Shown: one piece after another, positions 6,001 to 62,755 of the stretch
How positions within the stretch are numbered: the stretch's first letter is position 1
Layout: every line of letters starts with the position of its first letter
Virus record (IMG/VR): IMGVR_UViG_3300025151_000018
Span: 36,889 to 100,888 of that record
From: a virus
Reading direction: 5' to 3' (one strand)
Length of the DNA stretch: 64,000 nucleotides
Made by a program: the position numbers and the translations under genes
Notes under the pieces: model-generated
What the model was told of the DNA's origin: nothing
What the model saw: only the letters and a program-made list of their open reading frames with translations
Database searches by the model: none

Positions 6001-6745
6001 TGGTGAAGTCCACAAAATATGTAGCAGATCCTAAGATGTTTTCTCCGACAACCTTGTAGCCATCGTATTCTAACACCCTTACCACAGAGCCATTGTCGTA
6101 ATGCAATATACCTTTCTTTGGTATATCAGTTGGGTGATGGTGCAAACAATGACCGCCTGTTGTATTACCAGAATGCGGTGCGCTGAAATCGCTCGCCATC
6201 ATCAACCTAACAAAAGGGTGTCCTGTCAATGGATAAGTCCAATCACCGACTCCCGCATTGAGAACAGAATACACTTTACCTTGATAGGTCTTAGCCCCAG
6301 ACATTTTCACATACCTTGCTTTGAGATACCTGTTTCTCCCATGTAGCCCGATTTGGTGATCTCGGCTTGAGTTAATTGCTGATGCAATCATTCTTGTCGC
6401 TTCTTCTGTGCCTAAATCGTATGTCAAGATAGGCAAAGTCGGAACGGTAATCCTTGATTGAATGTTAGCCTGTGCTGCCCTTTTCAAATCCACGACTACA
6501 AAGTTAGTGCCATCGGCAGGTGTAATAGATGTAGCATCACCTGCCTGTGGTGTTCTAATTAGCAGGTGAAAACCTTGCTGGCCTCCACCAGCAGCCCATG
6601 TGCTATCAACCGCATCTTCATAGGCGGTGTCTGGATAGGTAAAGTGCATACTAAAATAGCCACTTTTTGGCTTGCCCTGATCTGTGCCGAGAGCGACATT
6701 AGCCGAAGCAAATCTTTGTTGAGGGAAAACTGTCTTACTAACCAT
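1..6745 (-). CDS. giant tail/receptor-binding structural protein, >2200 aa, truncated at window start
   Basis: ATG at 6745 directly follows the TGA of the 1971-aa gene (TGAATG). Translation begins MVSKTVFPQQRFASANV. Spot checks in this frame are open down to position 2, and the ORF track lists no terminated ORF in it. G/T/S/P-rich beta-type composition; distal tail position. Confidence 0.8.
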   Translation of the reverse strand, partial: MVSKTVFPQQRFASANVALGTDQGKPKSGYFSMHFTYPDTAYEDAVDSTWAAGGGQQGFHLLIRTPQAGDATSITPADGTNFVVVDLKRAAQANIQSRITVPTLPILTYDLGTEEATRMIASAINSSRDHQIGLHGRNRYLKARYVKMSGAKTYQGKVYSVLNAGVGDWTYPLTGHPFVRLMMASDFSAPHSGNTTGGHCLHHHPTDIPKKGILHYDNGSVVRVLEYDGYKVVGENILGSATYFVDFTITADSASSGDIAVNEIITIQNETEEQHTVVVSWEGDVPSNGGYWGSANGGPIIQGLGVDLPTWYLTAKPMDGGNMGLPALNHESRGGKPKKDATTGSSFSKNRGFSRFSIEGLNSCLIQPMPPPDMVFDGPSVMSNVAPEKSNRYTDATKLMPVESVEHGTELDGMGPYESGCFITSDQGASQSGSNVFTGGNEGAGTTTTVKVLTPDTDFGLNFEVGSKIYNSNKQEVGTVSSFQTLQQLTPNGAAHNPSANNFSILANGPRLRSCGLTYTRNGSAVQYGAGFLEITSGDPSQKLVLGDKIYYQTDGDTEIGTVASTPYVKCLRPDFTDANAFTSTSHPGVALNCTNDATFFTDGVLTLDDAPSRFLVVGDELAYFSGGIGVGTGKFISEIDNEANTIKVDISGGAPTIPTTPFVMAAKTLSPKAIRFDTPGNAFAGNTGQSIDGGEVALFVRRESDSSRPGSGLFNGSTSNYSDYTQADFDAGQKLTFVDANSPAPHNVRVNDPESAQVFADGTGTPDNTFAKSISIHGFEAMATKATAAQELFAYASPYTQWFGLNLYGSDGTYYGYGKMFDDGFQFISFAGTTIPAAEKLARSATTITLTANNAVQLNNGDELFYAPSENKWDIAFENGMRATTRFAEYQPNEIYEIAHGGAPISHLAQITEIDNGTTDLNNAIAQYATAGSATDITTMARGYRTVRNYNTERVSGLTISNEERVWDNLEVVDDNGNALILEGGSPFGTVIKDYTMPSNRLDPETGLETTEPSYAGSGLSPNLRISLPSADEIPGNILVRSGHDRVQAFRNTTWGMGGLTAPNMQKNGIVEQNLDTTLDSNPGEATQFDTHDRVLHFHPVRILHDTLESQFGLDLNNTVGSVPSGTTRLFAAHRLSDHVERGSVLTETTNGMPSATIIPHHRIRFGRQGHSFVSPMTMRGTPKSLRRQLHRSHGSAYSLMFEAETEHKHWGFQNLEPSQTTTRYYLDTLETKLNAYNHSTGSFSADGFPCEEVAYGSNAFHHEFYSGRPRQEPEILFAPGQEHTMPFGSYEQSHFVDADATTYKPSLLGMDDVATYSTPLSGHGAPVAFDLASNKIVNGAYNAGEEFAINGFFIGQYKLMGGRPYPTQYLGTITAAHTYLATKGMPQGWTQPRVATELATTPPLLSHDPQLTNKASAPKPIHGGALSAASDFEGSPLLMPNKDLALAKAEDTNSNAMPDAFLCTWLAEYSHPALLGTSREQYMTMRYRASGMPGATNYPATKDLLLRNAKVSHTTIGYSDGDEKSLPFERMYVFQWLQQYGYNGLNAGGHGTTHGLRAAGSVLMGHTTVREAHGTLRLPSKYQIPLLGIPIERLSRGEGIGDGLTPTVGYEEVVLHQNASNRIYDMIYTITSPMSAIDFSRRLPVRAWGMRGASDALNMLAGDPAQSAASNTAQQAITRSARFDGGVHDTMQKLPTIDDGADWLWPRGYAGVERTTPVGMVLTSHSAGEDYLRLSNEPWAKGEKEVGMGRVLQDESIGLVSHKAMPAGVVESVKTDFTSISPTETNAPLLTAKTLNKGSDPIVDLNHHTGDAVKAKDSVDALTQTTQFSASPATNFIHQKGNNLHLNAHPVDVFTGTTLPSSTNTDFIHDDRQHHFPSHGWGREIDMKDTTSATVRGVFPIPLSEIADHRQVQSDMSPRLGLITEPHSMKRTGQEKEYIITSTKAASLHTDLIVGQQFPVLPSYVSKYRKTKFNESRKPYDAVATTATDVYGTSISDQPYGRNLINQPVHKPIFNLHTTSSHGALAGGEVSKMLNNPDYTMIDTWAVRGSGDLPAWGGVFILRKTYLNRDDYDSQALSQHHSFDPLSSEAGQNVRKYVDYVVRAVRPLKITAFSGGQSNSIQHPDGWLLGPNAKVGNAGHFHRDNRYGIFELNEERTSPMIPISSLNSGGVRIDWPDANNRDVVWHLIPSANMLQHFKSDASRTDGQGIIHADTDARYSQSTHPGGGEEVSQSEANHAEITRPFAM

Positions 6746-9700
6746 TCAAACCCCCCAATTTTTCTGTCCTATTGTCATGGCTTCTTCAACCGATAGAGCC
6801 TTCACCCATAATCCTAACTCTGCTAACTGCCCCTTGAAATAGGTTCTTGCACGAGATGTTAATGAACCAGCCGTCTGTGAACCACCTTGACTGTTTAGAT
6901 TGTTGTTGCCGTATTGTAATTGTGCAACAGTCCAAAAACCTCCCTGTATTGTAGTGTTATCCGCCAATTCTTTGATTGAACCCCATAGGCCACTTGGTGA
7001 TATTACCATTGGCACACCATGCAGGGCAGCACCGATTACAATTTGCCCTTGATACCTACCATAATATGTGCTTCCACTTGCTAACGGATTTGCATTCGTT
7101 CCTGTTCCAAGACCTTTAGCGAGTCTTGGCATTCCTACTTGACCCCCCAAATATGTTGCATCATTGTTAAGTGGGTATGTGTTAAACGATCCACCGTATA
7201 GATAATCACCTGCGGTTTCTGTGTTTGGCATAGGCACACCATTGTCATAGATAATAGGTGTTCCATCAAGTGGTTTAACCACAGTAATTTGCCTCCAAGC
7301 ATCTTTTACTGCCACACCATTCGCCCATGTCGCATGATATTCTCCTGACGCAGCACTATTCTTATGATGGACTACAATTCTATAATCAAATTGTGCATTA
7401 GCATCACCAACTGCCGTCATACCATATTGCCTTGATAAAATTGACACACCCCAAGGTGCGCCATTGTTGTCAATACCATGCAATACAGGCCCGTTTCCAT
7501 ATCCCGATAGTTGCCATGTGGTATCGGTTGCGTTTGATGGTTTGAAACAGAAGGTGATACTCCAAGGCCCTTGAGCAAGAATATCCCCTGCTCTTGGGGG
7601 TATAGTCGGAACAGGGTATGACATGGCAGAGGACTTTGTTGGTATTTTTGATAGCGATATTGCCTTATGACCCGAACCGCCCATATCCCAATGAATACCT
7701 CTTGCTGATATGTCGCCTTCTGGCTCTGTTCCAGAGCCTTTGTATAGTGGCTTACCAACTGCCGATGCCTCATTATCCCCTAATAGTATAGAAAAACCTA
7801 ATGTGCCATTATTGAGCAAATCATTTGTAAAATCACCAATCATACCCAATTGCAATCCATATTTGTTTTCAACAGGGCGCATCACAGGTAAAGAACCGGG
7901 TGGATCATCTCCATAATCAGGCCCACCGTTGCCATCGGGGTCGCCAATGTATGGCAATCCATCATTGTTGAAACGGACATAGGCAATACAATCATCATCT
8001 TTGTAGTGCATTCCCGCATAGGAGTTTGCCTTCGCAGTATCTTGATTGTTTAATTTTGTGAAGTCTAAAACTGCTGCTGATTTTTGTATTTCCTCAACAT
8101 TTTGCAACCCGCTATATCCTGTTGGCCCTTTAGAATAATGGTGTGTATAGAAGTCAGAATAATCATTGTCTGTTCCATCACTAACATCAAATGTGATACC
8201 TGTATGTCCTCCACCAAAGAATAAGATGCCATGAGCGTCAATCATTGGCGATAGTAGTTGGATTTCAACACGCTGATACCTACCATCTTTGTCATAAAAC
8301 AAATCCTTGAATTTTTCTTTGAGTTTTGAGTCATAAGGCTGAACATCCTCTAACGCAGCACAAGCACCCGGTCCAGATACTTTGCAAAATGGTGCGCTAA
8401 ATGTGCTTACGCCACCAAAAGTTGCAAGGTGCTTGCCATCAACAAGAATTAGTCCACGCCTATCAAATTGGTTAATGTGGTTCGCTCGGTTCAGCATTTC
8501 TAAAATATCCCTATCCACCCAAAGCGTAGCCTGTGTATCAGGATCGTAGTCTGGTAGTAATTCAGCCGATGCAGTTGGATTTATTGCATTGTATCTTGGG
8601 TTCTTTACTGTAAAGAATGTCAATTCTTGCCCTATTCCCTCATACAACCGTAGTTTGTTGTCTTGCGTTTCAACAGAACCAACAACCGCACCTGTAAATG
8701 TGGTAATAGGAACATGAGTTTCACCGTCAGCACCTATTGGTAGTGGTGCAGGGAATGAATTGATTTGATAGGAACGGCTATTTGTAGTCAGCAGCCCACC
8801 GCTACCAATTGCCTGTTGCGGTCTATACCCATAGGGGCTATTGTTGTTGAACCATATAGCGAAGTTTCGTGATGAAGCACCGGGTATTGTGCTATGAATA
8901 ACGATAGTCATTCCCGATTCACCATCTCTGCTTTCCACTTCTTTACCCTCAAATGCTCTAACATAGCCCATGTGTGAACCTGTATCTGTGCTTGATGTAG
9001 CATAGAAATCATCATTTGGCATGGCACTATACGATTGAGCAAATAGTGCAGGTGGATTGAAAGCACTACCTCCATTTGTGTTAGTAGCATTAGGGTGCGC
9101 TGCTTGATTGATTAGCCTAATGACTTCATTTATGCCTTGATTGAAATCATCAACATTTGTTGCTACTTCACCAAAGTTAATGTGCATTTTTTGCACATGG
9201 TCTAAAGTTAGGTTATCGTTCTTCTTGCCCTTTAGACCAAGATAACTCGGTATCAATTCAATGGGCGGTCTTAATGGCATATCGTCAGCACCGTAGTAGT
9301 AGTGCATAGGGTCTAACTGCATACCCTCCATGCTCGGCCCATCTTTGATTAGTATTGTATTAGAGTCTTTAGGATCGAGCATGACTCTGGCTTTGCCATC
9401 GTTGCCAAGCCTCATGCCAAATAACATCTCAACACTTCTCCCAATTTTCTTCACCAAAGACAGAGCATCGGTTGTGCCAACATCAAATCTCAAATCATCT
9501 AAATTCCATGCCGTTTGCGCCCCTGTTTGAAATGAAGCACCTGTCAGCCACCCGCCCATGACAACAGGCAATCCACTTGAAATGAAATGACCGACAAAGT
9601 TTGATTGCGTTGGATCGGCTGATGATGTATTGTCTAATGGATTGTGAAATGCACCATAATAGAGTCTGTGTGAATTACCAACAATAGCAACCTTGTGTAT

Positions 9701-45454: not shown

Positions 45455-47259
45455 CTCTTGGTCACCCCATACGCTACATCTCGGACTGTCGGATCCTCAA
45501 AGCGGTATCGGGCTTGCAAATCTTCATCAAGTTGCGTTCCAGCATTAGAGCCGGGTTCTGTTGCACCACCTGCGGGTGAACCTCGCTTTGCATTATCCCC
45601 TAACTCTGGATTGGCTTTTGTCAATTTCTCCACCGCTTGCAACAAACGCTTGAGATCTCTTTTCATTTCAAGCAATTCACCACGCTTTAATCCTTTAATG
45701 TCTTTACCAGACATTTGTAATGTTGCTCTTTTACTAATATCCATTTTAACAGTTAGAGGGTCGCCTCCTAACGGATCACCAGCCAACGATGCCTCTCTTG
45801 CAGCAGCCTTGTTTGGTTTGAATTGTGAAAGTGATGTTCCTTTTGGTGCGCCAGACGATGGCATCTTTGTTCCAATCGTTTGCACCTTTTGCCCTGTTAT
45901 ACCACGAGTATCAGCGTGGGCTGACTGACCTCTCGGTAGCGCACCCATTTGCCTTCGGAATTTTTCAGCAGCGAGTTTTCTTTGATATGCCACAGGATCA
46001 CGGATTCTTAGCGGAATACCTGCTGCTCTTGGATTACTTGAGAACATTCGTCTTGGTGAAAAAGCCTGTTCCTTTGGAGAGCGAGATACATTTTGCTCAA
46101 CATTCCCTGCTCGCCTTTTTGTTTTGCCTTTAATATCACGGCTCGCCTCTTGCTTTCCACGCTTCATGGTTCGCTTGCGCTTTCTCTTGCGCTTGGCTTT
46201 GGTTTTCTTTTCATCTTGCTCGGACTCTTCATCCTCTTCATATTTGCGACCACGCTTCTTGCGCTTTGCTTTTACAATGTCAGATAGGAATATAGTCGGT
46301 GGCATTTGAGATTTGTTGGCTTCTTGCCAATTCTGTGATATGTCTTTATCCCACCCAAACTCGCCAACTGTTGGGTCAAGGACATTGTATAACTCCGATG
46401 GATCGTCAGAGTATCTTTCATCATCCATAGGGAATGCTACGCCAATTCCTTCAACGATGCTATGCTTTGGTGTCATTACCAACGGTTTTAGATTCCCTTG
46501 TGGGTTTGCCAACATTTCAATTTCATCAGGAGTTGGCATAGCATCCTCTCCATGAACTCGTTTATAGCCCCTTAACGAGTCAGCAGTAAAGGATTGTGCA
46601 TCGGCAGTAGCCGACCAACGACCTTCTTCACCTGTTTCTGGGTTTGGCGGAATTTTTTTCACATTAGCCCCAACAAAGGGTTGAACAAAATAACCGGGCT
46701 TTTCCTCATTCATTTGATGGATTTGTTCTATTGCCATATTCTCTGCTCGCTCACGCAGGTAATCGCTTGGGTCTATATCATCGGGTGCAAAGTCCTTTAG
46801 CATAGACCACGCATCATCAAACGCCTCATTACTTCGGCTAAAAATCAAACCCGCCCCTTCTCTGCGAACAGGGCCTGTGTTAGCACCTTGTGATATTCCT
46901 ATACCATTAGAAGCATGACCCATATCCACGCCCATAGCGGATTCAAGCAATTCACTTTCCTGTTCCATAGCAGGGGTGCGGTTTAGCACTTCACCCATTT
47001 CCTCTGGGTTTAATGTGATATGAGGCAATTCACCCTCCATTTCCCGCAATGCTCTCTTTTTCCTTGCGATAGGATCTAACTGTTCTCGCCTTTCCTCTGT
47101 TTCAGCCGAATTGCGATTATGGTGTGATAACCCATCAGAGTCCTCGTTAGGATTGACATCGTAATCACCGACCATTTCTCTTGAACGGAAACCGCCTGTA
47201 AATTCTTGAATGCGTAATGCTTCTTCATTGACTCCCCTGCGGGGGTTTGCCATTGGCAT
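45451..47259 (-). CDS. hypothetical protein with acidic N-half, internal AFxxAW tag and basic C-half
   Basis: EAFDDAWSMLK; KAKRKKRGRK...KAKRKRKRKRTMKRGK. Confidence 0.65.
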   Translation of the reverse strand: MPMANPRRGVNEEALRIQEFTGGFRSREMVGDYDVNPNEDSDGLSHHNRNSAETEERREQLDPIARKKRALREMEGELPHITLNPEEMGEVLNRTPAMEQESELLESAMGVDMGHASNGIGISQGANTGPVRREGAGLIFSRSNEAFDDAWSMLKDFAPDDIDPSDYLRERAENMAIEQIHQMNEEKPGYFVQPFVGANVKKIPPNPETGEEGRWSATADAQSFTADSLRGYKRVHGEDAMPTPDEIEMLANPQGNLKPLVMTPKHSIVEGIGVAFPMDDERYSDDPSELYNVLDPTVGEFGWDKDISQNWQEANKSQMPPTIFLSDIVKAKRKKRGRKYEEDEESEQDEKKTKAKRKRKRKRTMKRGKQEASRDIKGKTKRRAGNVEQNVSRSPKEQAFSPRRMFSSNPRAAGIPLRIRDPVAYQRKLAAEKFRRQMGALPRGQSAHADTRGITGQKVQTIGTKMPSSGAPKGTSLSQFKPNKAAAREASLAGDPLGGDPLTVKMDISKRATLQMSGKDIKGLKRGELLEMKRDLKRLLQAVEKLTKANPELGDNAKRGSPAGGATEPGSNAGTQLDEDLQARYRFEDPTVRDVAYGVTKR

Positions 47260-47678: not shown

Positions 47679-48085
47679 CTATCGCACCCTGCTTTACATT
47701 TAGGCCAACCTTCTCTTTGCACCAAAGCCCCAAAAGTAGGGCCACCACAATTTGGGCAAGGTGGCACTTTGCGGATTCCCCCACAATCATCACAAGAACC
47801 ACGCCTAACCCCTGATCCTTGCATACCACTACCACGACAATTAGGGCAAATTAACCAATCAGAACCAGCCCTTGCTTGCATTCGTTCCGACCATTCTCTA
47901 TCATTCTTCACCACAGACCAACCTATGTTGAATGCTTTAGAAACCCATTTTGCTTGGCGGTTGCACTTTGAGCAATCATCATCACCGCATCCACCCCCGC
48001 ATGAGGAACAGTCGCCTCTTCCACAATAAGAAAAATCATCTTTGTGGGATTCATCTTCACAGTTTGTTGTTGCACATTGACTCAT
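47675..48085 (-). CDS. Cys-rich protein with DnaJ-type CxxCxGxG motifs and internal tag
   Basis: CPNCRGSG, CDDCGG, CPNCGG; KAFNIGWSVVK. Confidence 0.6.
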   Translation of the reverse strand: MSQCATTNCEDESHKDDFSYCGRGDCSSCGGGCGDDDCSKCNRQAKWVSKAFNIGWSVVKNDREWSERMQARAGSDWLICPNCRGSGMQGSGVRRGSCDDCGGIRKVPPCPNCGGPTFGALVQREGWPKCKAGCDR

Positions 48086-48513
48086 TCTTTCATCTCCCTA
48101 AACCTGCGCTTCCATTGTTCTTCATTTTCTCTTTGAAGTTTTGCTTCATGAATCCTTCGCTCTCGCCTTAATGCCTCTTTCCTTGCGGATAGCGGATATG
48201 GCTCTCCACCAGCCGACCTATCCCAACTGTAAGGTTCTGGTCTTTCACCAGACATATCTTGATCGTGCCTATATCTAATGTCTATATCTGGAAAACTCCC
48301 TTTGTATTTGTGATAAGCGTCAGACATATCTCTTTCATTGCCTTCTTCATCAATGTAGCCTAATTGTTCAGGAACGACAACGCCATCCCATTTGCGCTGA
48401 CCGTAGCGAACCTTGTCGCCTTCAACCATTCGCTTGCCTTCCTCAACCTTTTCTCTTGGGCCGATAAACTCTTTGACTATCGCCCAACCTACTGCAAATG
48501 CTCTATTACTCAT
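48082..48513 (-). CDS. hypothetical protein with N-terminal AFxxGW tag
   Basis: MSNRAFAVGWAIVKE. Confidence 0.6.
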   Translation of the reverse strand: MSNRAFAVGWAIVKEFIGPREKVEEGKRMVEGDKVRYGQRKWDGVVVPEQLGYIDEEGNERDMSDAYHKYKGSFPDIDIRYRHDQDMSGERPEPYSWDRSAGGEPYPLSARKEALRRERRIHEAKLQRENEEQWKRRFREMKE

Positions 48514-49225: not shown

Positions 49226-49465
49226 TCATTCATCTTTATGTGTTTTCTCATATATTTTACGGTGAAGGTCGCAATATGGTGATGGTTTTTGCACCGCCTT
49301 CTTGCACCTATTACCAGATTTTGCTATCGCTTTACACCTATGTGGCTCTGGATCAGATTTAGGCACAGGCTTCGCCTGTGGTTGTTCCGCTACATACGCT
49401 TGCGGTTGCGGGGCGTAATTTACCCGCCCACTAATACCGAAAGGCTGCGTATTGTCGTATTGCAA
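49226..49465 (-). CDS. small C3H zinc-finger ORF (start uncertain)
   Basis: RCKAIAKSGNRCKK...YCDLH; the only candidate start is a TTG inside the upstream gene. Confidence 0.5.
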   Translation of the reverse strand: MQYDNTQPFGISGRVNYAPQPQAYVAEQPQAKPVPKSDPEPHRCKAIAKSGNRCKKAVQKPSPYCDLHRKIYEKTHKDE

Positions 49466-49682
49466 GTGTTGCGGTTAAGATAAGACCAAAGAACATAGCC
49501 ATCATTTCACCTGTTCCAAGTGATGGCCCTTTCCACACTAACATTACCATTGAAAACAACATAAACGCCAAAATGAAAATCATTGTGGCACTTTCAACTA
49601 ACATCTTATTTGGCGACATTAAACCTACGGTTGTTGCCGACCAATTTACATCTCCTGATATTGTTCTATCATCTTGACCCAT
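49431..49682 (-). CDS. small two-TM membrane protein
   Basis: Two hydrophobic stretches (ATMIFILAFMLFSMVMLVW; MMAMFFGLILTATLAI). Confidence 0.65.
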   Translation of the reverse strand: MGQDDRTISGDVNWSATTVGLMSPNKMLVESATMIFILAFMLFSMVMLVWKGPSLGTGEMMAMFFGLILTATLAIRQYAAFRY

Positions 49683-49686
49683 TATA

Positions 49687-50340
49687 TCACAATCCTACTG
49701 CTGCACCCTTAGCAGCCATGTTCACACCTTGCCCCATAGTAGCACCAAAGCCACCGTTTTGCTGAACCGCATTACCCATCATACCACCAAGAAGGCTACC
49801 AAAGAAGCCCGGTTGTTGTTGTTGTTGCATATTGTTCATCATCATACCTTGTTGATGTGCTGCAAGGAACATTTGTAATTGTTGTTGATTGGCGTTTAAC
49901 ACATTCTGCGCTGAACCCTGTGCCTTTTGTAATGTAAGAGCCAGATTTTCTGGTGATAGTGTTGCAAGGTCTTGTGGTAGTGTTGAAGTATCAAGAGTTA
50001 TTTTATCTCCATCTTGCTTAAATGATACATTGTTGAAAAACTCTTTAATTGACAACATCATAATTTCACCGACCAAATCAAGCACAAGTGCCATGTTTTG
50101 AGAAATCACAAAAGAGGAAACGGGGTCATATAGTTGTAGTAATTGTGAAGTCGCCAAGACAGGATCATTCGCTGCTTGTTGCATCATCGGGTTTTGTGTC
50201 GCTTGCATCATACCCATCATGCCATTGTTCATACCGCCATATTGCTGATTCATACCGCCAAACCCTTGCTGCGCTGCAAGTGATGGCGCACCAAACTGTT
50301 GCGCTGGTTCGCTCTTATTTCCAAATCCAAATAACCCCAT
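49687..50340 (-). CDS. Gln/Met/Gly-rich protein
   Basis: MGLFGFG start with GGTGA RBS; C-terminal GFFGSLLGGMMG glycine-zipper-like segment. Confidence 0.65.
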   Translation of the reverse strand: MGLFGFGNKSEPAQQFGAPSLAAQQGFGGMNQQYGGMNNGMMGMMQATQNPMMQQAANDPVLATSQLLQLYDPVSSFVISQNMALVLDLVGEIMMLSIKEFFNNVSFKQDGDKITLDTSTLPQDLATLSPENLALTLQKAQGSAQNVLNANQQQLQMFLAAHQQGMMMNNMQQQQQPGFFGSLLGGMMGNAVQQNGGFGATMGQGVNMAAKGAAVGL

Positions 50341-50352
50341 TGTTTCACCTAT

Positions 50353-51246
50353 CTATTGTTTTGCTTCCATTTGCTGATTCATTTGCTGCATTTGTGGGTT
50401 GATACCCATCTGTGCCTGTTGAGTTAATTGTTCCATTTGCAACGCCCTCAAATCAAAAGTGATACTAACCAAATCCGCTATGCCTGTCATTGGGTTCGGG
50501 TGTTGCGTCATTACAACCCCTTTTGAGTATTGTGCATCTTGTTGCACCATTCTAAAGAATGGCTCATATTTCATTAGCGACTCTGGTGTTGAACGGTTTT
50601 TCTGTGTCTTTCCTGTCAAACCCGGCACACGCAAAAATCTTGTTCCTTTTGCTACTACCTTTCCAAACCCTTCTTTAGCCATATCTTGTTCTTCAACCAT
50701 GCACTTTAGTGTATGGTAAATATGCAAATGAGCAGGGCATAATGTGCTATTCATCTGGTCGCCATGATCGCCATGTGTGCGAGCATGAGGCTTATTGGCT
50801 TGCCCTGTATCTTCATTAAACCAATATATATCGGCTAATGACAATCCTGTGCGGTCATCAACAATATGAGAATATGCGTTATCACCTTCTAAGAATCGCC
50901 TGACATCAACGCCACAACAAGCACATTCATGTGGTGCATTGTAGCGATATACTTTGAATAGCCCCAAATTGTAGTTTGGTGGCCTTAGTGCTTTGCGAAG
51001 CATCTTGATATTTTTCTTTCTGGCTTTGGCTGGATTCTTGTGGTTGGTCTTTAGATTGATTTCAACCGTTGGTATCATCTGATCATCGTGCATATCGCCC
51101 GATGAACCTGCGCTTGCCATTTCAGCCCTCTGTTGTGCTTTCAACAACTCATAAGCAATGCCCGTTTGCTGCGATAAAACACGCAACTGATCGTCAGAAA
51201 CACCATTGAGGGAAACACCACCGTTGCCAAAGAAAGGGATTCCCAT
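50353..51246 (-). CDS. putative Zn-binding protein
   Basis: MGIPFFG start; HECACCG and LCPAHLH; Gln-rich tail. Confidence 0.6.
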   Translation of the reverse strand: MGIPFFGNGGVSLNGVSDDQLRVLSQQTGIAYELLKAQQRAEMASAGSSGDMHDDQMIPTVEINLKTNHKNPAKARKKNIKMLRKALRPPNYNLGLFKVYRYNAPHECACCGVDVRRFLEGDNAYSHIVDDRTGLSLADIYWFNEDTGQANKPHARTHGDHGDQMNSTLCPAHLHIYHTLKCMVEEQDMAKEGFGKVVAKGTRFLRVPGLTGKTQKNRSTPESLMKYEPFFRMVQQDAQYSKGVVMTQHPNPMTGIADLVSITFDLRALQMEQLTQQAQMGINPQMQQMNQQMEAKQ

Positions 51247-51285
51247 GATACCATGTCAGGGCTAACAGGATAAAAAAACTTCTTA

Positions 51286-52014
51286 TCAAATTAGGTGTAT
51301 AGTATCAACTATTGCCTTTTCAACATGCAAGCCGTATTGAGAAGATATTGCTTCAACATTGGTCGGAATACCTGCCCTTCTCAATCTTCTCAACTCATCT
51401 TGAAACGGTATCACCATTCTATACTGCCTTTTTAGCCCCATAGACCATAGTGCATCTGACTCTGGACTCCACCAAATATCCATCTTATTTAACAAAAGAC
51501 AGACAACCTTTGGTTTCCAACGCTTTGCCTTTTTCTTCATTTTCCTTGAAAATGTTGATGGATATTTAGTATCTGTAATCATATCAACAATATACTGAAA
51601 CCCTGCAACTGCCTCATTACGCAGGTGTGGAGATAACATTATTCTGTGATCGACAACATAGAATATAATATCCCTATGCTCATCTATTATATCTTTAGCC
51701 CACATTCCCCAATACTGTTGTTGCCCCCCTATGTCTGACGATGTAATAGGGGTTCTTTCTCCATTGAATCTAACTTGTTTCTTTGTGCTTCTCGGCATAG
51801 AGAAATTGCCATTGCGAACAGGGTGCGTAGTCCTTAACTCGGCAGGTATTGGGTCAATATCACCGGGAACAGTTAGGTATTGATCAAGAGTTGTTTTACC
51901 GACCATAGATGGCCCATATACCCCAACCCTATGCGGTTTCAACAATCTATACACATAAGTTGCTATTTGGGCTGAACCTAACAGTAAATGCCCTGCAAAC
52001 ATCCATGTTGCCAT
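51286..52014 (-). CDS. Arf-like small GTPase
   Basis: G1 GPSMVGKTT, G2 RTT, G3 DIGGQ, IIFYVVD, G4 NKMD, G5-like AISS; hydrophobic N-terminal extension. Confidence 0.85.
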   Translation of the reverse strand: MATWMFAGHLLLGSAQIATYVYRLLKPHRVGVYGPSMVGKTTLDQYLTVPGDIDPIPAELRTTHPVRNGNFSMPRSTKKQVRFNGERTPITSSDIGGQQQYWGMWAKDIIDEHRDIIFYVVDHRIMLSPHLRNEAVAGFQYIVDMITDTKYPSTFSRKMKKKAKRWKPKVVCLLLNKMDIWWSPESDALWSMGLKRQYRMVIPFQDELRRLRRAGIPTNVEAISSQYGLHVEKAIVDTIHLI

Positions 52015-52020
52015 TCACGA

Positions 52021-52242
52021 TCACTCGCCCCGAATGTGCTGCCAAATGGCTTCTGGGCTTATTTGAAGCCAAATATCCATGCCAACCAAAGTTAGAAAGG
52101 TTATACCAGCAGTTGCAACAACCGCAATAATTAGTTTGATGTTGTTTGTCGCTCGCTCTAACCTTCGCTCATAAGCATTCTCGGCTAATATCATAGACAT
52201 GGCTTCGGCTTGTCTTTCATTAGCGGTGCTAAACGGCCACAT
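52021..52242 (-). CDS. small single-TM membrane protein
   Basis: LIIAVVATAGITFLTLVGM hydrophobic span; MWPF start. Confidence 0.65.
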   Translation of the reverse strand: MWPFSTANERQAEAMSMILAENAYERRLERATNNIKLIIAVVATAGITFLTLVGMDIWLQISPEAIWQHIRGE

Positions 52243-52252
52243 GGGTATCGCC

Positions 52253-52738
52253 TCATTGCACTATGATGCCTTGCTCTTCTTGATTCTTTTGCTCATCGGC
52301 TGGCTCTTCATTAGGTAATCCAAAGGTTTGACCGCCCACCGCTTGATTCCAATGTTGTTGCTTTGACATTTCACTATATTGATACTGCCGATCTTTACGC
52401 ATCCTTCGCTCTTGCAATCTATGTTGAGAGCGTAGCCACTTATCATAGCGGTTCTCTTGAGCAAACTCGGCTCGCATTTGAAGCGAATCTCTGATGCCAC
52501 CGACATGAAACAAGACCATAGCAAGACAGAGGAAACCAAAACAGATTAGCCCGTATTGCAACCCCATCTCGGCTGGCCCTGCATCGGCCAAATACCAATT
52601 CAGGTGCGATACTGCTACTGCCGTTCCTGTTAGCAAAGATTGCCACAGTAGCATGGCTATTAGGTTAATATCAATTCGGTTTTCATCCATTCCACCATAC
52701 GGTGGTCTATTTGGTGGTTGTTGCTGCATTCTATTCAT
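52253..52738 (-). CDS. two-TM membrane protein
   Basis: LIAMLLWQSLLTGTAVAV and YGLICFGFLCLAMVLF; charged C-tail; GGGGAG RBS. Confidence 0.7.
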   Translation of the reverse strand: MNRMQQQPPNRPPYGGMDENRIDINLIAMLLWQSLLTGTAVAVSHLNWYLADAGPAEMGLQYGLICFGFLCLAMVLFHVGGIRDSLQMRAEFAQENRYDKWLRSQHRLQERRMRKDRQYQYSEMSKQQHWNQAVGGQTFGLPNEEPADEQKNQEEQGIIVQ

Positions 52739-52904
52739 CTCCCCTTTGTTTGAAGTATTGCGCTAAAATATGATTCACAAACGATGACTTAGATTCCCTG
52801 CCCCGTTCCGCCTCCATTTTGGCAAACAATTCATCAGGCATTACTACCGATACATGACGGCTCATGTGTAAATGCCACTACTGTTAAGGCTATCAAGGTT
52901 GTGA

Positions 52905-52934: not shown

Positions 52935-53453
52935 ATGAGCGCAGCAAACCTACCAGAAACTGTATCGGCATTAAGGTCTTTTCAACAGACAAGCAGGTTA
53001 AATGCTGACAACCCTTCAATACTTGAAACTTGGATCCAACGACATACAAATGAAGATACTGCAACCGATTTTAGTTTCAACGCAGCAATCGCAATTTTAC
53101 ATTACCACAATCACCCACTATATGGCGACATAAACAATGTTAGCACAGAAGCACAAACATGGATTTCCCATGTTCAACCTGCTGAAACAATACTCGCACA
53201 AGAGGAAACATGGTTAGATATGCAAACTACTACTATGTTATCCACCAATTTAGTCCGAATCTTCGGATCAGATAACCATTGGTTAGGTCAATGGGGCAGC
53301 ATTAACAATCTCGGTAATGTTCCTATTGCTTATGTTGTCAATTATTTAATTACCCGCTTGCAAATATGTGAAGGAAACAACGGCCCAACAGGTGCAAATA
53401 CCATCTCTCATACCTCGCAAGAGCCACCGGGTATGCAAGAGGAAATCCCATGA
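52935..53453 (+). CDS. hypothetical protein
   Basis: 172 aa; ATGA-coupled to the HMG-CoA lyase gene. Confidence 0.65.
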   Translation: MSAANLPETVSALRSFQQTSRLNADNPSILETWIQRHTNEDTATDFSFNAAIAILHYHNHPLYGDINNVSTEAQTWISHVQPAETILAQEETWLDMQTTTMLSTNLVRIFGSDNHWLGQWGSINNLGNVPIAYVVNYLITRLQICEGNNGPTGANTISHTSQEPPGMQEEIP

Positions 53454-54274
53454 ACAAAGCCATACGGATTTATGAAGTCGGCCCAAGAGATGGCATACAG
53501 GTCATGCAACACATTGTTGATACAGATCTCAAGGTAAAACTAATTGAAAGTCTGGTAAAGGCTAATTTGAAAGACATTGAAGTCGGTTCGTTTGTTCACC
53601 CCAAACTTGTTCCTAACATGGCTGATTCAGCCGAAGTGTATGAAAAAATATCACATTTAGATGGTAATTTTGGGGTTCTTGTGCCAAACGGCAAGGGTTT
53701 GAGCCGAGCGCAAGAAGTGGGTGCTAAGATGTTTAATGTATTCTTTTCACCCGTTGCCTCATTCAATATCGCTAATCACGGTAAAACCTATGATGAAGTC
53801 TTTGAGCAATACTACATTGCACTAAAGGATATACCCAGAGATAGGGTTCGGGTCTATCTATCCATGTCATTCCACGCTACAAAGAAGCAAATGCACAAGG
53901 CTATGAAAGACGCTTTGATGCTTGGCGACAAGGTTGTATTGTGTGATACAGACGGCAAAGCATCAAGCGAGCAATTCTATCACACTATACGCAGGGCATT
54001 AGAGCATACAGATAATGTTGCAATTCACCTACACCAAAGCACAAAACTCATGCAAAATGTCGCTACTGCCTATGATATGGGTATTACGGAGTTTGATTGT
54101 AGCATAGGTGGTATGGGCGGTTGCCCGTTTGTTGAAGGATCTAAGGCTAACCTTGCCACAGAAGATTTGGTTCAATGGTGCAAAGAGCGTGATATACCCT
54201 GTAATGTGGGTGATTTATCACAAGCGTTAGAGATTGTTAGTAAAATCAAAAATCATCAAGTTGTCTTGGGTTAA
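53450..54274 (+). CDS. hmgL: hydroxymethylglutaryl-CoA lyase (DRE-TIM metallolyase)
   Basis: EVGPRDGIQ, EVGSFVHPKLVPNMAD, LVPNGKG, HLH metal site, GGMGGCPFVEGSKANLATEDLV. Confidence 0.9.
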   Translation: MNKAIRIYEVGPRDGIQVMQHIVDTDLKVKLIESLVKANLKDIEVGSFVHPKLVPNMADSAEVYEKISHLDGNFGVLVPNGKGLSRAQEVGAKMFNVFFSPVASFNIANHGKTYDEVFEQYYIALKDIPRDRVRVYLSMSFHATKKQMHKAMKDALMLGDKVVLCDTDGKASSEQFYHTIRRALEHTDNVAIHLHQSTKLMQNVATAYDMGITEFDCSIGGMGGCPFVEGSKANLATEDLVQWCKERDIPCNVGDLSQALEIVSKIKNHQVVLG

Positions 54275-56672
54275 GTTTGGTATTGTAAATATGCTCTAAC
54301 AATGAAGGAGGGTATCTTGCAAGTGGGTTATCGTGATCAGCATAACCGATTGTTGAACCTCTCCGATAACACGCACGACACTTCTTTTCTCCCGTCATTG
54401 GGTCAGGTTGCATATCACATTTCCTTTTGAGTTGATTAGGCTCAATTGAAGCGGGGCATACGCTAAAATTAGGGTTGTTTTCCATAAGTGTGTCATAAGT
54501 AGTGAAGTCAATCGCAGGGTGTTTTCCTAATTCGTGCAAATTAACACCCTCATACACCGTGTTGGGTTTAATGTCATCAGGAGTCATTCTTCCCGGTAAA
54601 GATACCTTTAACGCCAAATTAGGTGAAATATCTTCCCAACCTCTCGCATCAAGGAACTCTTGTAAGAACGGTAATTGGCGTGTTGAACCCCAAAAATCAA
54701 CGGCAGGGTTGTCCTCTGCTATTTTGTCTGCTGCTGCATACGCACCCGGTCCTTGAGCATCACCTGCCGACCATAACCTTGCAACAGGTTTGTCTTTTCT
54801 TGAAGTGCGGTCTAACAATGCTCTTGGTGTTGCAGTAAGTGAATAGGCTGATGCTACTTCTTCTGGGTGTTCTATCATTCTATCATAATTTCTCCAAAGT
54901 GCTGCTTGTGTTGAGTTGAATTTGTAGTTATGGTCGCAAGCATAACAATGACCGCAAGCCGAATTAGGATTATCTCTTGTAGCAAAGACACAGGCTCTTG
55001 GTGGTGCATCCATCATAGATGGCCCTGCCATTTTACCCGGTTGTCCGTAATGCCCGAACTTCTCTGGCTTTCCTCTATAATCAAGATTTACACTAACATC
55101 TTCCCATTCTGGCAATTCATAATCAGCGTCAAGGGGAATATCCATCAAGCGGGGATTACCAAACTCATCGGTGATGTGGTCTTGCACCAAATAGTCGTTT
55201 GCTTTTAACCAATTGATAAGATCCATATTTCCGCTATTCCATTTCCCTTCAACCTTTTTTCCTGATTCTTTTCCTGTTGGGATGCCAAGATCTTTCCACC
55301 AATTCATGTAATTTGGCATTTCATCAGGTGCTACTGCCTTGTTGAATATATCAGCCATTTCTGTCAAATCATTGACAATTGACCTGCGAATGATTGTCTG
55401 TGGGTCTATGCCGTCAGGAAAAAACTCGGCTTTTCCTAACCAATCGTCTGGGTTGAATGCTTCACCAAACCTTTGTTCCCATGCCATAGCCTCTTCTGGT
55501 GTTCCTAAGAATTGTTGTTGTGGGTGATCTCTAAAATACTCGGCAGCGTCAAAGTTAGGAATGTTTGCAGTAGCAATCAATTCGGGCTTAATGCCTCTTT
55601 TACCTACTGTTGCAGTATTATCCCTGCGTCTGTTCAACATTGTGCTAAAGCCTTGATCGCGATATAAATCCGCAACAAGTGGGCTATTGTATGCTATGAT
55701 AGGCAAACCATCTTCGGCTAATTCACCCAATCGCCTTGCGAGTTGTTGTTGCTGACCGCTTTTCATATCAAACTTATCAGAATACCCTGCTTGCTCTCCT
55801 TCATACGGTGGGTCAATTGGCATAATACCCCTATTGGTATCAATCTCCTTATCCCTCAAAAACTCATCAACAGGCATAGCATCCATTTCCCAATTTTCCA
55901 TCATTGGCTTGTAGTGCCTGTAATTCCATATATCAGCATAAGGGCCACCTGCGCCTCTTGTCATGGTATATCTTCCTGTTTGGTTGTTATATCTGGTAAA
56001 TGCGTTTAGTGAAGATTGCTGCGTCATAAGCCACAATTGGGCTAATCGTTTGTAGCCATCATCATCTAATTCTCCACGATTCGCCATGTCTAACATATAA
56101 TTTAGTGAACCTTCTTCTGGATTTATTGCACTACCTCTTAATGTCGGTCCATCATAATGGCTTATGTCATGTCCTCCTTGAACCGCAGCCTCTTGGCCGA
56201 ATTGAGAGCCAAAGAATGTCGGCTTGCTAATCATATTTGGCCTTGCTATATATTCCGAAGGATCCATCTGTTGCCCTGCTTTTTGTCCTGTTGGGAAAAT
56301 TTGTCTTGCCCTGTCATCATCAGGAATACCATGCCCTGTAAATTCCGACCAATCAATTTCAAAGTTGGGGTCTTGTTGCATTTGGCGATATGCGTTAATG
56401 ATGTTAGCATCTTTATCGGCTACTGATATTTCCTTCATAGGCAAATTCAATGGTAAATTCGCACCACCAACCATTGGGTCATACAGAATATCAGCACCTG
56501 TCCTTGAAACTATGCGCTTCAAAGGGTCAATGTAGTGATCTCTCCCTTTACTACCAGCCCACTTTAATGGTGATTGTATTTCTGGGCGACCCTTTTGCGG
56601 GGGTTTTATACCTCTAACACCTTGACCTTTTGGCTTAGGGTCAGGGCCATCAAAGAGATAACGGTTAGCCAT
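54246..56672 (-). CDS. Dam-family (D12) DNA adenine methyltransferase fused to a gp88-like Cys-rich domain
   Basis: SPLKWAGSK, YDPMVGG, DKDANIINAY, NAFTRYN, IDPPY; then AC...SACGHCYA...RLWSAGD...FWGSTR...CPA...CRACY. Confidence 0.75.
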   Translation of the reverse strand: MANRYLFDGPDPKPKGQGVRGIKPPQKGRPEIQSPLKWAGSKGRDHYIDPLKRIVSRTGADILYDPMVGGANLPLNLPMKEISVADKDANIINAYRQMQQDPNFEIDWSEFTGHGIPDDDRARQIFPTGQKAGQQMDPSEYIARPNMISKPTFFGSQFGQEAAVQGGHDISHYDGPTLRGSAINPEEGSLNYMLDMANRGELDDDGYKRLAQLWLMTQQSSLNAFTRYNNQTGRYTMTRGAGGPYADIWNYRHYKPMMENWEMDAMPVDEFLRDKEIDTNRGIMPIDPPYEGEQAGYSDKFDMKSGQQQQLARRLGELAEDGLPIIAYNSPLVADLYRDQGFSTMLNRRRDNTATVGKRGIKPELIATANIPNFDAAEYFRDHPQQQFLGTPEEAMAWEQRFGEAFNPDDWLGKAEFFPDGIDPQTIIRRSIVNDLTEMADIFNKAVAPDEMPNYMNWWKDLGIPTGKESGKKVEGKWNSGNMDLINWLKANDYLVQDHITDEFGNPRLMDIPLDADYELPEWEDVSVNLDYRGKPEKFGHYGQPGKMAGPSMMDAPPRACVFATRDNPNSACGHCYACDHNYKFNSTQAALWRNYDRMIEHPEEVASAYSLTATPRALLDRTSRKDKPVARLWSAGDAQGPGAYAAADKIAEDNPAVDFWGSTRQLPFLQEFLDARGWEDISPNLALKVSLPGRMTPDDIKPNTVYEGVNLHELGKHPAIDFTTYDTLMENNPNFSVCPASIEPNQLKRKCDMQPDPMTGEKKCRACYRRGSTIGYADHDNPLARYPPSLLEHIYNTKLNPRQLDDF

Positions 56673-61093: not shown

Positions 61094-61222
61094 GCTTCAC
61101 CCCAAAGCATACCAACCCTTTAGGGTTTTTATGATAGACTTGTGATATATCGCTAAAATATCACCTTGTTAATGTTGTCATTTGTGTCAAGGTTAATATG
61201 TATGGTCGGCTCGCATAGGTTC

Positions 61223-62755
61223 ATGCAAGGCCAACCCGTCTTTATCATGCAGCAGGGAACAACACAGGAACAAGGGAGAACCGCCCAAACTAACAATATC
61301 GCAGCAGCGAAGGCAGTTGCACAAGCGGTTCGCACCACTTTAGGACCAATGGGTATGGATAAAATGCTCGTTGATGAAAGTGGAGATGTGATTATTACCA
61401 ATGACGGTGCTACAATCCTTGAAGAGATTGATATTGAGCATCCAACGGCTAAAATGATTATTCAAATCGCCAAAACACAGGAACAGGAATGTTATGATGG
61501 CACTACATCAGCAGTTATTGTATCTGGCGAGTTGCTAAAGAAGTGCGAGGGGTTGATCGAGCAAGATATACACCCAACCACCATTTGCAGGGGGTTGAGA
61601 AAGGGTCTGGTCTTTATATTAGAAAAATTGAAAGACTACGAGATTGCCGACATTGACCTTGACAAAATTGCCAAAACTGCCCTTACAGGTAAATCGGCTG
61701 ACTCGTTTAAGGACATTATATCTGACATTTGCGTTAATGCGGTGATGAATACCGACAGTCTTGAGGAAATTCGCATCTCAAAAGCACTTGGTGGGTCAGC
61801 AGAGGACAGTATTATCCTTGATGGCATCATCATAGACAAGGAAAGATGCCACCCTGCTATGCCAACATACCTAAAAAAGCCGTTTATAGGGCTAATTGAC
61901 AGTAATTTGGGTGTAAAACAGACAGAAATTGATGCAAACATACAAATTACCGATCCTGCACAGATTGAGGCGTTTTTGGCTAAGGAAGAAGCCGAATTAC
62001 AGGCTATGGCAGAGAAATTCCATGCTGAAAAGGTCAATGTAGTGCTATGTCAGCGTGAAATTGATGATTTAGTCAAGTATCACTTCGCAAAATTGGGTAT
62101 TTTGGCTCTTGAGAAGGTCAATAAGACCGATATGGAGGCAGTAGCGTCAGCATCTGGTGCTACAATCATCAATAATGTCAAAGATTTGAATACTGACGCA
62201 TTAGGTTCGTTTAATTTGGCTGAACAGGAAACACTTGGCGAGTTGCCAATCCTAAAACTGTCAAATGGAGTCAATGCAGCCACTACTGTGCTACTGCGTG
62301 GCCCTACTACACACTTTGTTGATGAAATTGAAAGAGCATTTGACGATGCTTCGGGTGTTGTTAGCGTTGCACAATCCGATTCTGTTGTCCTTGCAGGTGG
62401 TGGATCCACCTATACAGGCTTATCCAACAACCTTGCAGCCCATGCAAAGACTGTATCAGGCCGTGAAGGTATGGCAATCCTTGCTATGGCGGAGGCACTT
62501 GAGGCAATTCCACGCACTTTGGCAGAAAACGCAGGGCTTGACCCCGTTGATGAGATGATGGCTTTGCATAAAGCACATGATAAGGGCAAAAAGTATCACG
62601 GAATTAACATTGAAGTCGGTGGTGCTATTGATATGCGTAGTCTGGGAGTCTTTGAGCCTAAGCGAGTTGTTGAACAGGCACTAAAGTCAGCAGTTGAAAC
62701 CGCAATCATGGTTCTCCGCATTGACGATATTATATCTTCAAAGAAGCGTGATTAA
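61223..62755 (+). CDS. ths: thermosome (group II chaperonin) subunit
   Basis: QPVFIM N-terminus, [29 protein letters not shown], helical-protrusion [22 protein letters not shown]. Likely start ATG 61223 with TTAATAT about 24 nt upstream. Confidence 0.95.

Follow-up and report, generated by a model that had tools for sequence, protein, structure and literature searches.

A gene cassette kept in three virus lineages places a divergent Arf-like small GTPase among small membrane proteins

Introduction

What might a tailed virus of marine archaea do with an Arf-like small GTPase encoded among small membrane proteins? The question is raised by IMG/VR virus record IMGVR_UViG_3300025151_000018, in which a gene for such a GTPase lies in a tight, co-oriented run of small genes. 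The window, that is, the whole stretch of DNA that was analysed (64,000 nucleotides, positions 36,889 to 100,888), is the right-hand 64 kb of this 100,888-bp record, which has an estimated completeness of 95%. A preliminary description of the window, made from the letters alone, had proposed that the GTPase and its neighbours form a GTP-switched membrane-remodelling module for lysis or egress, vesiculation or superinfection exclusion.

The egress machinery of archaeal tailed viruses has been called 'still completely uncharacterized' (PMC10791045), and the magrovirus literature that we searched contains no mention of a GTPase and no description of this cassette. Newly described here are a five-gene core that is shared by three lineages and changes its position, a comparison with the archaeal GTPase ArvA, a census of the catalytic residue, the absence of ArvC and of cellular relatives of the GTPase from sampled Poseidoniales, and a single-cell host link. 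The locus is best explained as a self-contained, co-transcribed, late cassette with a virus-specific Arf/Sar/SRbeta-like GTPase at its centre. We tentatively infer that the cassette serves as a GTP-switched membrane-remodelling or egress module, a function we propose with less than even confidence.

Results and discussion

A five-gene core is kept in three virus lineages

In lineage 1, the lineage of the window, the window proteins were compared by tblastn with 55 related viral loci (GTPase identity 41-81%). A single gene order was found wherever the flank suffices: an RHH-like protein, a protein with two transmembrane helices (2-TM), a 1-TM protein, the GTPase, a Cys/His protein, a Q/M-rich protein and a further 2-TM protein, followed by an occasional small Cys/His protein, a 235-residue CxxC/coiled-coil protein, and the proteins p139, p602 and p640. 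The open reading frames (ORFs) for TM, Cys/His and Q/M-rich proteins that had been reported beside the GTPase are all present on the minus strand (Table 1). The gaps between the cassette genes range from -35 to +39 nt, which suggests co-transcription. Scans for sigma-70 promoters and terminators gave results at or below chance, the consensus not being applicable to archaea.

Lineage 2 comprises four loci, in which the GTPase is 32% identical to that of the window and the core order is identical. The first two genes encode a 239-272-residue protein with a Q-rich tail and, as judged by eye, hydrophobic, TM-like stretches, and a 72-79-residue protein that is hydrophobic, likewise by eye; the GTPase is followed by a Cys/His homologue of 256-258 residues (28% identity, tblastn E 1e-21) and by a Q/M-rich protein of 246-272 residues, which starts with MKMGLFG in locus L063. 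Lineage 3 is very abundant, with 140 IMG/VR loci and a GTPase of 26-29% identity, and the same five genes are found in 67/67 loci with enough flank. In all three lineages, a single-pass protein of 72-79 residues lies directly upstream of the GTPase.

Profile comparison of lineages 1 and 3 by hhalign links the GTPases at 99.7% and the Q/M-rich proteins at 60.9% (E 8e-5), while the link between the Cys/His proteins is weak but collinear (E 2e-3). The short TM proteins of the two lineages gave no hhalign link, and the equivalence of the TM proteins across lineages rests on size, topology and position. Because the same five genes are kept across the three lineages, we define a five-gene core, composed of the 2-TM, 1-TM, GTPase, Cys/His-like and Q/M-rich genes, that is old relative to these lineages.

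The place of the core in the genome differs between lineages. Specifically, it follows the methyltransferase gene about 9 kb upstream of the terminase gene in lineage 1, comes shortly after the thermosome gene in lineage 2, and in lineage 3 is separated by about 1 kb from the prohead protease and capsid genes upstream of it. Relative to the structural genes, the core changes place as a unit, in the manner of a self-contained cassette. The synteny that the preliminary description had named as a test holds throughout: the GTPase adjoins membrane-protein genes in every relative examined, including the two further lineages, where GTPase identity falls to 25-32%.

The central gene encodes a small GTPase

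The product of the central gene has 96 homologues, with E values down to 1e-149 in a sequence search, and motif conservation was read from an alignment of 46 of them, from lineage 1. Of the full motif set claimed earlier, G1, G3, G4 and G5 are present and T62 is the likely G2 threonine. Specifically, G1 reads GPSMVGKT, with G34, G39 and K40 invariant and kept also in distant relatives; the G2 region contains the invariant pair R61-T62; G3 reads DIGGQ and is followed by a Trp, with D94, G97 and W105 invariant; G4 reads NKMD, with N176, K177 and D179 invariant; and G5 reads ISSQ in the window protein and ISAQ in the family consensus. The G5 of the family, ISAQ.G.NVE, looks more Rab/Ras-like. Furthermore, a Gly-His pair in the N-terminal helix, a Tyr-Arg pair at the end of this helix, and a TVPG...IP...RT.H stretch in switch I are invariant.

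The DxGGQ...W switch is present in the window protein as described, and its Trp is invariant, but the Gln is replaced in 11 of the 46 lineage-1 sequences. In particular, this position is Q in 34/46, D in 9, E in 1 and H in 1, one sequence having no G3 match; it is Q in 26/40 and E in 14/40 sequences of lineage 3, and His in lineage 2. Sar1 has His at the catalytic Gln position. With the Gln so variable, the Arf-type signature of DxGGQ plus Trp is a property of the window GTPase and not of the whole viral family.

The AlphaFold2 (AF2) model of the GTPase has a mean pLDDT of 81.9 and a pTM of 0.81 and is confident over the G domain, while residues 2-25 are modelled as a helix at lower confidence. 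The model has the Ras-like alpha/beta G-domain fold, with VIA-align Z scores up to 18.4 over about 160 residues and a root-mean-square deviation of 2.3. A Foldseek search with the model gave at least 500 matches at E 1e-3 or better, and the 50 matches listed are all small-GTPase chains, without a ranking of subfamilies. The 96 homologues, the model at this pLDDT and the at least 500 small-GTPase matches put the identity of the protein far beyond chance; judged by its predicted fold and its nucleotide-binding motifs, it is a genuine small GTPase. A search for longer or fused forms of it found none, which is weak evidence.

The GTPase is a divergent relative of the Arf family

The VIA-align ranks 1-12 are taken by Arl1, Arl3, Arl8, Arf1 and HodArfR1 (Z 18.4-16.7, 17-22% identity), and below the Arf family come a Lokiarchaeal RagA-like protein (Z 16.3) and Rab proteins (Z at most 15.8, 13-15% identity). 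On the predicted model, Arf-family proteins thus appear, with moderate confidence, to be the nearest solved structures: they lead by 1 to 3 Z units, and this lead, together with sub-threshold profile matches, is the basis of the subfamily ranking.

A profile of the GTPase family searched against PDB sequences places 8oun, an Asgard ArfR, first (E 6.5e-6), followed by Arl8, Arl6, Arf1, Rab33 and G-alpha; the 8oun entry belongs to the study 'Arf family GTPases are present in Asgard archaea'. The window GTPase itself has no Arf match in Pfam at E up to 1 and stays below the gathering threshold of PF00025. Sub-threshold Pfam matches among the 46 relatives are to Arf in 33 members, Ras in 22, Roc in 21, SRPRB (PF09439) in 10 and Gtr1/RagA in 6; the best Arf match reaches E 1.4e-4, and the SRPRB matches are weaker than those to Arf. 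Searches with the single GTPase sequence found nothing past the P-loop, and the PDB search returned P-loop noise only. An exhaustive profile search of 1.84 billion representative proteins yielded just 83 matches at E 1e-3 or better, and the family is therefore narrow. P0156 and P0171, among the most distant full-length profile relatives, are the only ones to exceed the Pfam Arf cut-off, and P0171, alone among the proteins with SRPRB matches, also exceeds the SRPRB cut-off; searches of viral contigs found neither P0156 nor the likewise distant P0099. In the language-model Atlas, the nearest neighbours are viral GTPase clusters, followed by bacterial clusters in which 17-67% of members bear a Pfam Arf domain. 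The Arf-like assignment of the preliminary description is accordingly upheld by profile, fold ranking and language-model neighbours but fails the Pfam Arf threshold, and the viral GTPase is best described as a very divergent member or a sister of the Arf/Sar/SRbeta clade, not as a canonical Arf.

Besides the Ras-like G domain and the best structural and PDB profile matches, the likeness to the Arf family includes a DxGGQ-type G3 with a downstream Trp, as in Arl8, an N-terminal helix before beta1, and an expected site of action at a membrane. In contrast to Arf proteins, the viral GTPase scores below the Pfam threshold, has an uncharged helix of low hydrophobic moment, lacks a Trp directly before the G3 Asp, often has the Gln replaced, is lengthened by about 50 residues through three insertions, of which one is polybasic, has a G5 that looks Rab/Ras-like, and is encoded by a virus of a non-Asgard archaeon.

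An Arf-clade G domain placed after an N-terminal hydrophobic anchor is the architecture of SRbeta, and a residue other than Gln is tolerated at the catalytic position in both. On this basis, the GTPase could be an SRbeta-like anchored receptor for membrane-protein targeting, whose Met/Gln-rich partner would bind hydrophobic segments and insert viral membrane proteins. Met-rich domains of targeting factors bind hydrophobic segments, and the Q/M-rich partner has many Met residues; the weak SRPRB matches in 10/46 members and the above-cut-off score of P0171 point the same way. However, SRPRB matches are weaker than Arf matches and do not reach the threshold in the window protein, a partner resembling SRalpha or SRP was not found, and the genes stand in a viral late operon. 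Moreover, the idea of Met-rich binding comes from analogy alone, and the only proteins for which the virus would need such insertion are the few small ones that this cassette encodes. We consider a targeting device highly improbable.

Virus-encoded members of the Ras superfamily are also known from giant viruses, and the mimivirus Rab (PDB 5xc5) matches the fold of the model at Z 15.1. Giant-virus small GTPases are recognisable copies of host Rabs that act on eukaryotic endomembranes, whereas the archaeal viral family, with its 83 representatives, has no cellular relative in the sampled host order.

The representative library also contains P0109, a protein of 2,180 residues with 21 separate short matches to the GTPase profile around the P-loop, which resembles a repetitive P-loop protein.

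The N-terminal helix resembles a weak anchor

The Arf family is defined by an N-terminal amphipathic helix that is released to the membrane upon GTP binding (bioRxiv 10.1101/2024.02.28.582541). The hydrophobic N-terminal helix claimed for the window GTPase is conserved, weakly hydrophobic and uncharged, but it is not classically amphipathic: the 21-residue segment contains 0 charges, its Eisenberg hydrophobicity averages 0.48, and its hydrophobic moment is 0.18. By these values, the conserved segment would resemble a weak anchor more than an amphipathic helix, and a Kyte-Doolittle scan gives no TM segment above threshold in it. Arg and Lys residues follow the helix, so that the G domain would face the cytoplasm.

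The GTPase is about 50 residues longer than the aligned G domains owing to three insertions. The first lies between switch I and beta2, the second, ahead of beta5, is polybasic and conserved (RKMKKKAKRWKP in the window protein), and the third forms an extra helix between G4 and G5. Arf proteins have an interswitch toggle, in which beta2-beta3 shift register by two residues; in the viral GTPase, a beta2-beta3 hairpin is predicted at residues 77-83 and 86-92 in the single modelled conformation. The stretch between the likely G2 Thr and the G3 Asp is 32 residues, probably longer than in Arf1.

The virus groups with magroviruses of Poseidoniales and its GTPase is not an ArvA orthologue

Tailed viruses of about 100 kb with a thermosome and such a gene make-up are the group A magroviruses of Marine Group II archaea (PMC5434244). 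The window virus is a magrovirus, a thermosome-bearing tailed virus that groups with the magroviruses of Poseidoniales; megablast of 20 kb of the window against GenBank phages gave no match. The whole cassette is also present on the 106-kb contig CACGHY010000002.1 (106,262 bp) of the single-cell genome AG-422-I20, labelled Candidatus Poseidoniales, where it spans about 2578-7110 with 44-70% identity, the GTPase copy being 50% identical. This contig is probably a magrovirus inside its host cell and would provide a direct host link; because a single-cell Poseidoniales contig carries a GTPase copy and the whole cassette, the assignment of the host to Poseidoniales is supported. Haloferax, named in the preliminary description as an expression host, is not the natural context and could only be a surrogate: the GC content is about 43% over the whole window, the virus groups with Poseidoniales magroviruses, and the host is not a haloarchaeon.

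The same archaeal-virus cassette occurs on an 8,227-bp contig, NZQM01000063.1, binned in a metagenome-assembled genome of the alphaproteobacterium Parvibaculum, most likely through a binning error.

In Euryarchaeota, the Arf-like GTPase ArvA drives vesiculation; the Haloferax protein is Arf-like by profile, has an N-terminal helix, and is encoded in an operon with the Zn-ribbon protein ArvC (PMC10927574). As a control, ArvA-ArvB-ArvC loci were recovered from Thermoplasmatota genomes, in which ArvB and ArvC clearly adjoin ArvA, and six ArvA sequences were profiled. The viral GTPase matches ArvA by hhalign at 93.8% (E 1.7e-7) over 39 columns only, from the P-loop to switch I, where both share the stretch xGIYGPxxxGKTTL ... 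IPxExR. Both are small GTPases with an N-terminal helix, are closest to Arf by profile, and stand in an operon with a Cys-rich partner; ArvA is linked to membrane deformation, as is proposed for the viral GTPase. In contrast, ArvA has DTPG and lacks the GGQ...W signature of the viral GTPase, and the partners of the viral GTPase are TM proteins and orphans; no cassette protein has a Pfam match to ArvB (DUF2073) or ArvC (OapC, PF09845). Since homology to ArvA is not full-length, ArvA lacks GGQ...W, and ArvB and ArvC are missing from the cassette, the viral GTPase is not an ArvA orthologue.

OapC/ArvC was found in 73/151 sampled genomes of the host phylum and in 0/61 sampled Poseidoniales genomes, which suggests that Poseidoniales lack the ArvABC system. 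A search of the same 61 Poseidoniales genomes with the viral GTPase profile gave no match either, the viral contig of the single-cell genome excepted; the virus therefore carries a kind of GTPase that is absent from its host order as sampled.

These counts bear on the possibility that the cassette serves host take-over or superinfection exclusion at the envelope, where it would block competing viruses, alter transport or make decoy vesicles, the GTPase standing in as regulator for the ArvA-type vesiculation that the host order seems to lack. The strong similarity to ArvA between P-loop and switch I, the role of ArvA in vesicle formation and the absence of ArvC from the sampled host genomes agree with such a role. 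However, the similarity ends at switch I and no ArvB or ArvC homologue accompanies the GTPase; genes of this kind are usually variable, whereas the cassette is universal and among the best-conserved genes in three deep lineages; and the cassette is co-oriented with late genes. We therefore regard take-over or exclusion as improbable.

The partners are small membrane proteins and orphans

Scans of the cassette proteins against Pfam, NCBIfam, PHROGs and PADLOC gave no significant family. TM helices were counted by a Kyte-Doolittle scan, which predicts five of them in three cassette proteins near the GTPase. Both TM helices of the 161-residue protein are near invariant across 46 distinct sequences, which would suggest specific helix-helix contacts or a channel; the protein has no family match in Pfam or PHROGs, and its place is taken by a protein of like architecture in lineages 2 and 3. 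The 73-residue ORF stops 6 nt ahead of the GTPase start, and the sole holin match of its product (phrog_689, E 0.092) is not significant. The 83-residue 2-TM protein has no counterpart recognised at this position in lineages 2 and 3.

The 297-residue Cys/His protein is the most conserved member of the cassette, with 56-90% identity to the window protein in the lineage-1 alignment. Its pattern ECxCCG...LCPAHLHIxHTL is invariant in lineage 1 and partly kept in lineage 2. The label 'Zn-binding' given to it earlier depends on the CxxC...CxxH pattern, which one distant lineage does not keep; zinc binding is plausible from the sequence. The protein has 155 homologues, all unnamed and none with a Pfam domain, and itself has no PDB or Pfam match. 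Its AF2 model is poor (pLDDT 62.5) and uninformative, with no fold match above Z 5, and its Atlas neighbours are noise at 0.76. An HNH-type nuclease (CxxCG...H...CxxH) was considered and rejected, the would-be catalytic His being Gln in several members and no HNH family or fold being matched.

The 217-residue Q/M-rich protein begins with MG[WL]F and contains FG dipeptides, low-complexity stretches of Gly/Met/Asn/Gln, a conserved helical core and an invariant PGFFG motif; its C-terminal tail is rich in Gly and Ala. It has no PDB profile match and no Pfam match. The aromatic N-termini noted for three neighbours of the GTPase are real; of these, the MG[WL]F[SG] start of the Q/M-rich protein alone is shared by all three lineages.

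The remaining members are less constant or peripheral. The 44-residue RHH-like protein has a beta-strand-like RHVSVV followed by two helices and no significant Pfam match, and a 69-bp gap separates its gene from a divergent gene pair on the plus strand. The 79-residue ORF overlaps the preceding gene by 35 nt, and its zf-primase match (E 5e-4) is below the cut-off. The 235-residue protein, directly downstream of the cassette in 57/58 lineage-1 loci, has 41-85% identity and a conserved Cys pattern; it gives weak coiled-coil matches only and was not seen next to the core in lineages 2 and 3. Its membership of the cassette is uncertain, and it might be a DNA-binding packaging factor resembling a small terminase subunit, without a family match.

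In its small 1-2-TM proteins with charged tails, its compactness, its place at the head of or within a late operon, and a position that varies between related viruses, the cassette is similar to holin lysis cassettes such as lambda S-R-Rz and that of P2. In particular, the 161-residue protein has two TM helices and a very basic tail, the 73-residue protein one helix, and the 83-residue protein two. Unlike those cassettes, the viral one contains no endolysin, spanin or significant holin match, and its TM helices are unusually conserved. The earlier statement that no holin or endolysin is recognisable in the window is supported for the block, in which scans against Pfam and PHROGs recognised no such family. 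We know of no lysis cassette that contains a small GTPase.

A GTP-switched module is a tentative reading of the cassette

We propose that GTP binding and hydrolysis would act as a switch or timer that controls whether the membrane proteins and the low-complexity partner assemble into a membrane-deforming or membrane-breaching structure late in infection. The release of virions would be the most likely purpose of such a structure. The Cys/His protein may be an effector or a regulator of the GTPase, which would explain the loss of the catalytic Gln in many members. The case for egress is built on the membrane context, late co-orientation, a mobility among positions where phage lysis genes are typically found, the universal presence of the cassette in three lineages, the precedent set by Arf-like GTPases in deforming archaeal membranes, and the absence of any other egress candidate for archaeal tailed viruses. 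In its most specific form, a membrane-anchored viral GTPase would nucleate the two small membrane proteins and the FG-containing Met/Gln/Gly-rich partner and rupture or vesiculate the host membrane, releasing progeny; we consider this form possible but doubtful.

Several observations weigh against egress. No cassette member significantly matches a holin, endolysin or lysis family in Pfam or PHROGs. Holins are usually poorly conserved, and the near-invariant TM helices are better accounted for by a specific complex or by a channel than by a generic holin. A timer based on hydrolysis is not assured, because the Gln is replaced in 11/46 lineage-1 and 14/40 lineage-3 sequences, and membrane anchoring of the GTPase is itself presumptive, as its helix falls below the standard TM threshold. 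Both the unusual conservation of the TM helices and the many replacements of the Gln speak against a simple holin-plus-timer device and for a specific complex with regulation supplied by a partner. Furthermore, adjacency to morphogenesis genes fits a role in assembly equally well.

In such a role, the GTPase and its partners would organise morphogenesis at the membrane, as an assembly platform or as a checkpoint of capsid maturation or DNA packaging. In lineage 3, the cassette is flanked by the capsid gene cluster and, downstream, by large late genes; in lineage 1, it heads a run to the terminase, portal, protease and capsid genes. The protein just downstream shows the paired CxxC motifs and the coiled coil that might be expected of a DNA-binding packaging factor, and neighbouring genes share an N-terminal tag. 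However, this tag is found on none of the cassette proteins, core morphogenetic genes are normally fixed in order whereas the cassette moves as a unit between three positions, and tailed virions have no membrane, which leaves five TM helices without an obvious structural role. An assembly or packaging helper is unlikely on this evidence.

If membrane remodelling for egress is the function, a GTP-gated machine would supply a vesiculation-type activity that the Poseidoniales host lacks, and archaeal head-tail viruses would have their first described egress mechanism in this cassette, which would also be the first system for lysis or egress to have a small GTPase at its centre. The compact, universally conserved cassette, with a GTPase that can be purified, mutated and assayed, is a concrete and testable egress candidate. 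Were it an assembly or exclusion device instead, it would still be an unannotated core function of a globally important virus group, whose Marine Group II hosts are abundant ocean archaea. The family would extend Arf-like GTPases at membranes beyond eukaryotes and Asgard archaea to viruses of Thermoplasmatota and bears on the spread of GTPase-driven membrane remodelling before eukaryotes.

Neighbouring genes and further observations

The features of the cassette and of the rest of the window are collected in Table 1.

Table 1. Features of the window discussed in the text (positions in the window; aa, amino acids)
Feature	Position	Strand	Basis or remarks
RHH-like protein, 44 aa, first gene of the co-oriented run	52731-52865	-	sequence pattern only
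2-TM protein, 161 aa	52253-52738	-	TM 26-44 and 64-82; strongly basic helix and Q-rich tail
1-TM protein MWPF..., 73 aa	52021-52242	-	TM 37-55; conserved charged N-terminal helix, ILAENAYERR region
Divergent Arf-like GTPase, 242 aa	51286-52014	-	motifs, homologue alignment, AF2 model
Cys/His orphan MGIPFFG..., 297 aa	50353-51246	-	basic helix NIKMLRKALRPP, Cys/His pattern, Q/M-rich tail
Q/M/G/N-rich protein MGLFGFG..., 217 aa	49687-50340	-	alignment of homologues
2-TM protein, 83 aa, extended lineage-1 cassette	49431-49682	-	TM 31-49 and 57-75; in 57/58 lineage-1 loci
Basic Cys/His protein, 79 aa, variable member	49226-49465	-	BLAST-detectable in 14/58 loci
CxxC/coiled-coil protein, 235 aa	48506-49213	-	two CxxC-H motifs with a helix after each, and a coiled coil beyond them
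AFxxGWxxxK-type N-terminal tags of proteins just downstream of the cassette	48472-48501; 47906-47935; 46795-46824		
Terminase large subunit, portal, S78 prohead protease, SU10/HK97-type capsid protein, tail tube protein	window	all -	
Two-gene unit: 172-aa orphan and 274-aa HMGL-like enzyme	52935-54274	+	HMGL-like, Pfam E 6e-20
808-aa fusion: D12 N6-adenine methyltransferase-like region (weak) and C-terminal GP88 domain	54246-56672	-	GP88 E 4e-12
Thermosome subunit, full-length archaeal	61166-62755	+	NCBIfam thermosome alpha, E 3e-170; as in group A magroviruses

The N-terminal tag of the downstream proteins also occurs on an extra 89-residue ORF, starting MNRAMEIGWAILKN, in the related locus L002 (8357-8626). 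This ORF is inserted between the Q/M-rich and 2-TM genes; the cassette proteins themselves have no tag.

Upstream of the cassette, the halves of the methyltransferase/GP88 fusion correspond to separate ORFs in several relatives. The HMGL-like two-gene unit is wedged between the methyltransferase and RHH genes, on the strand opposite to both. In relatives, the HMGL gene lies elsewhere or is missing from the locus, and it resembles a mobile auxiliary metabolic gene.

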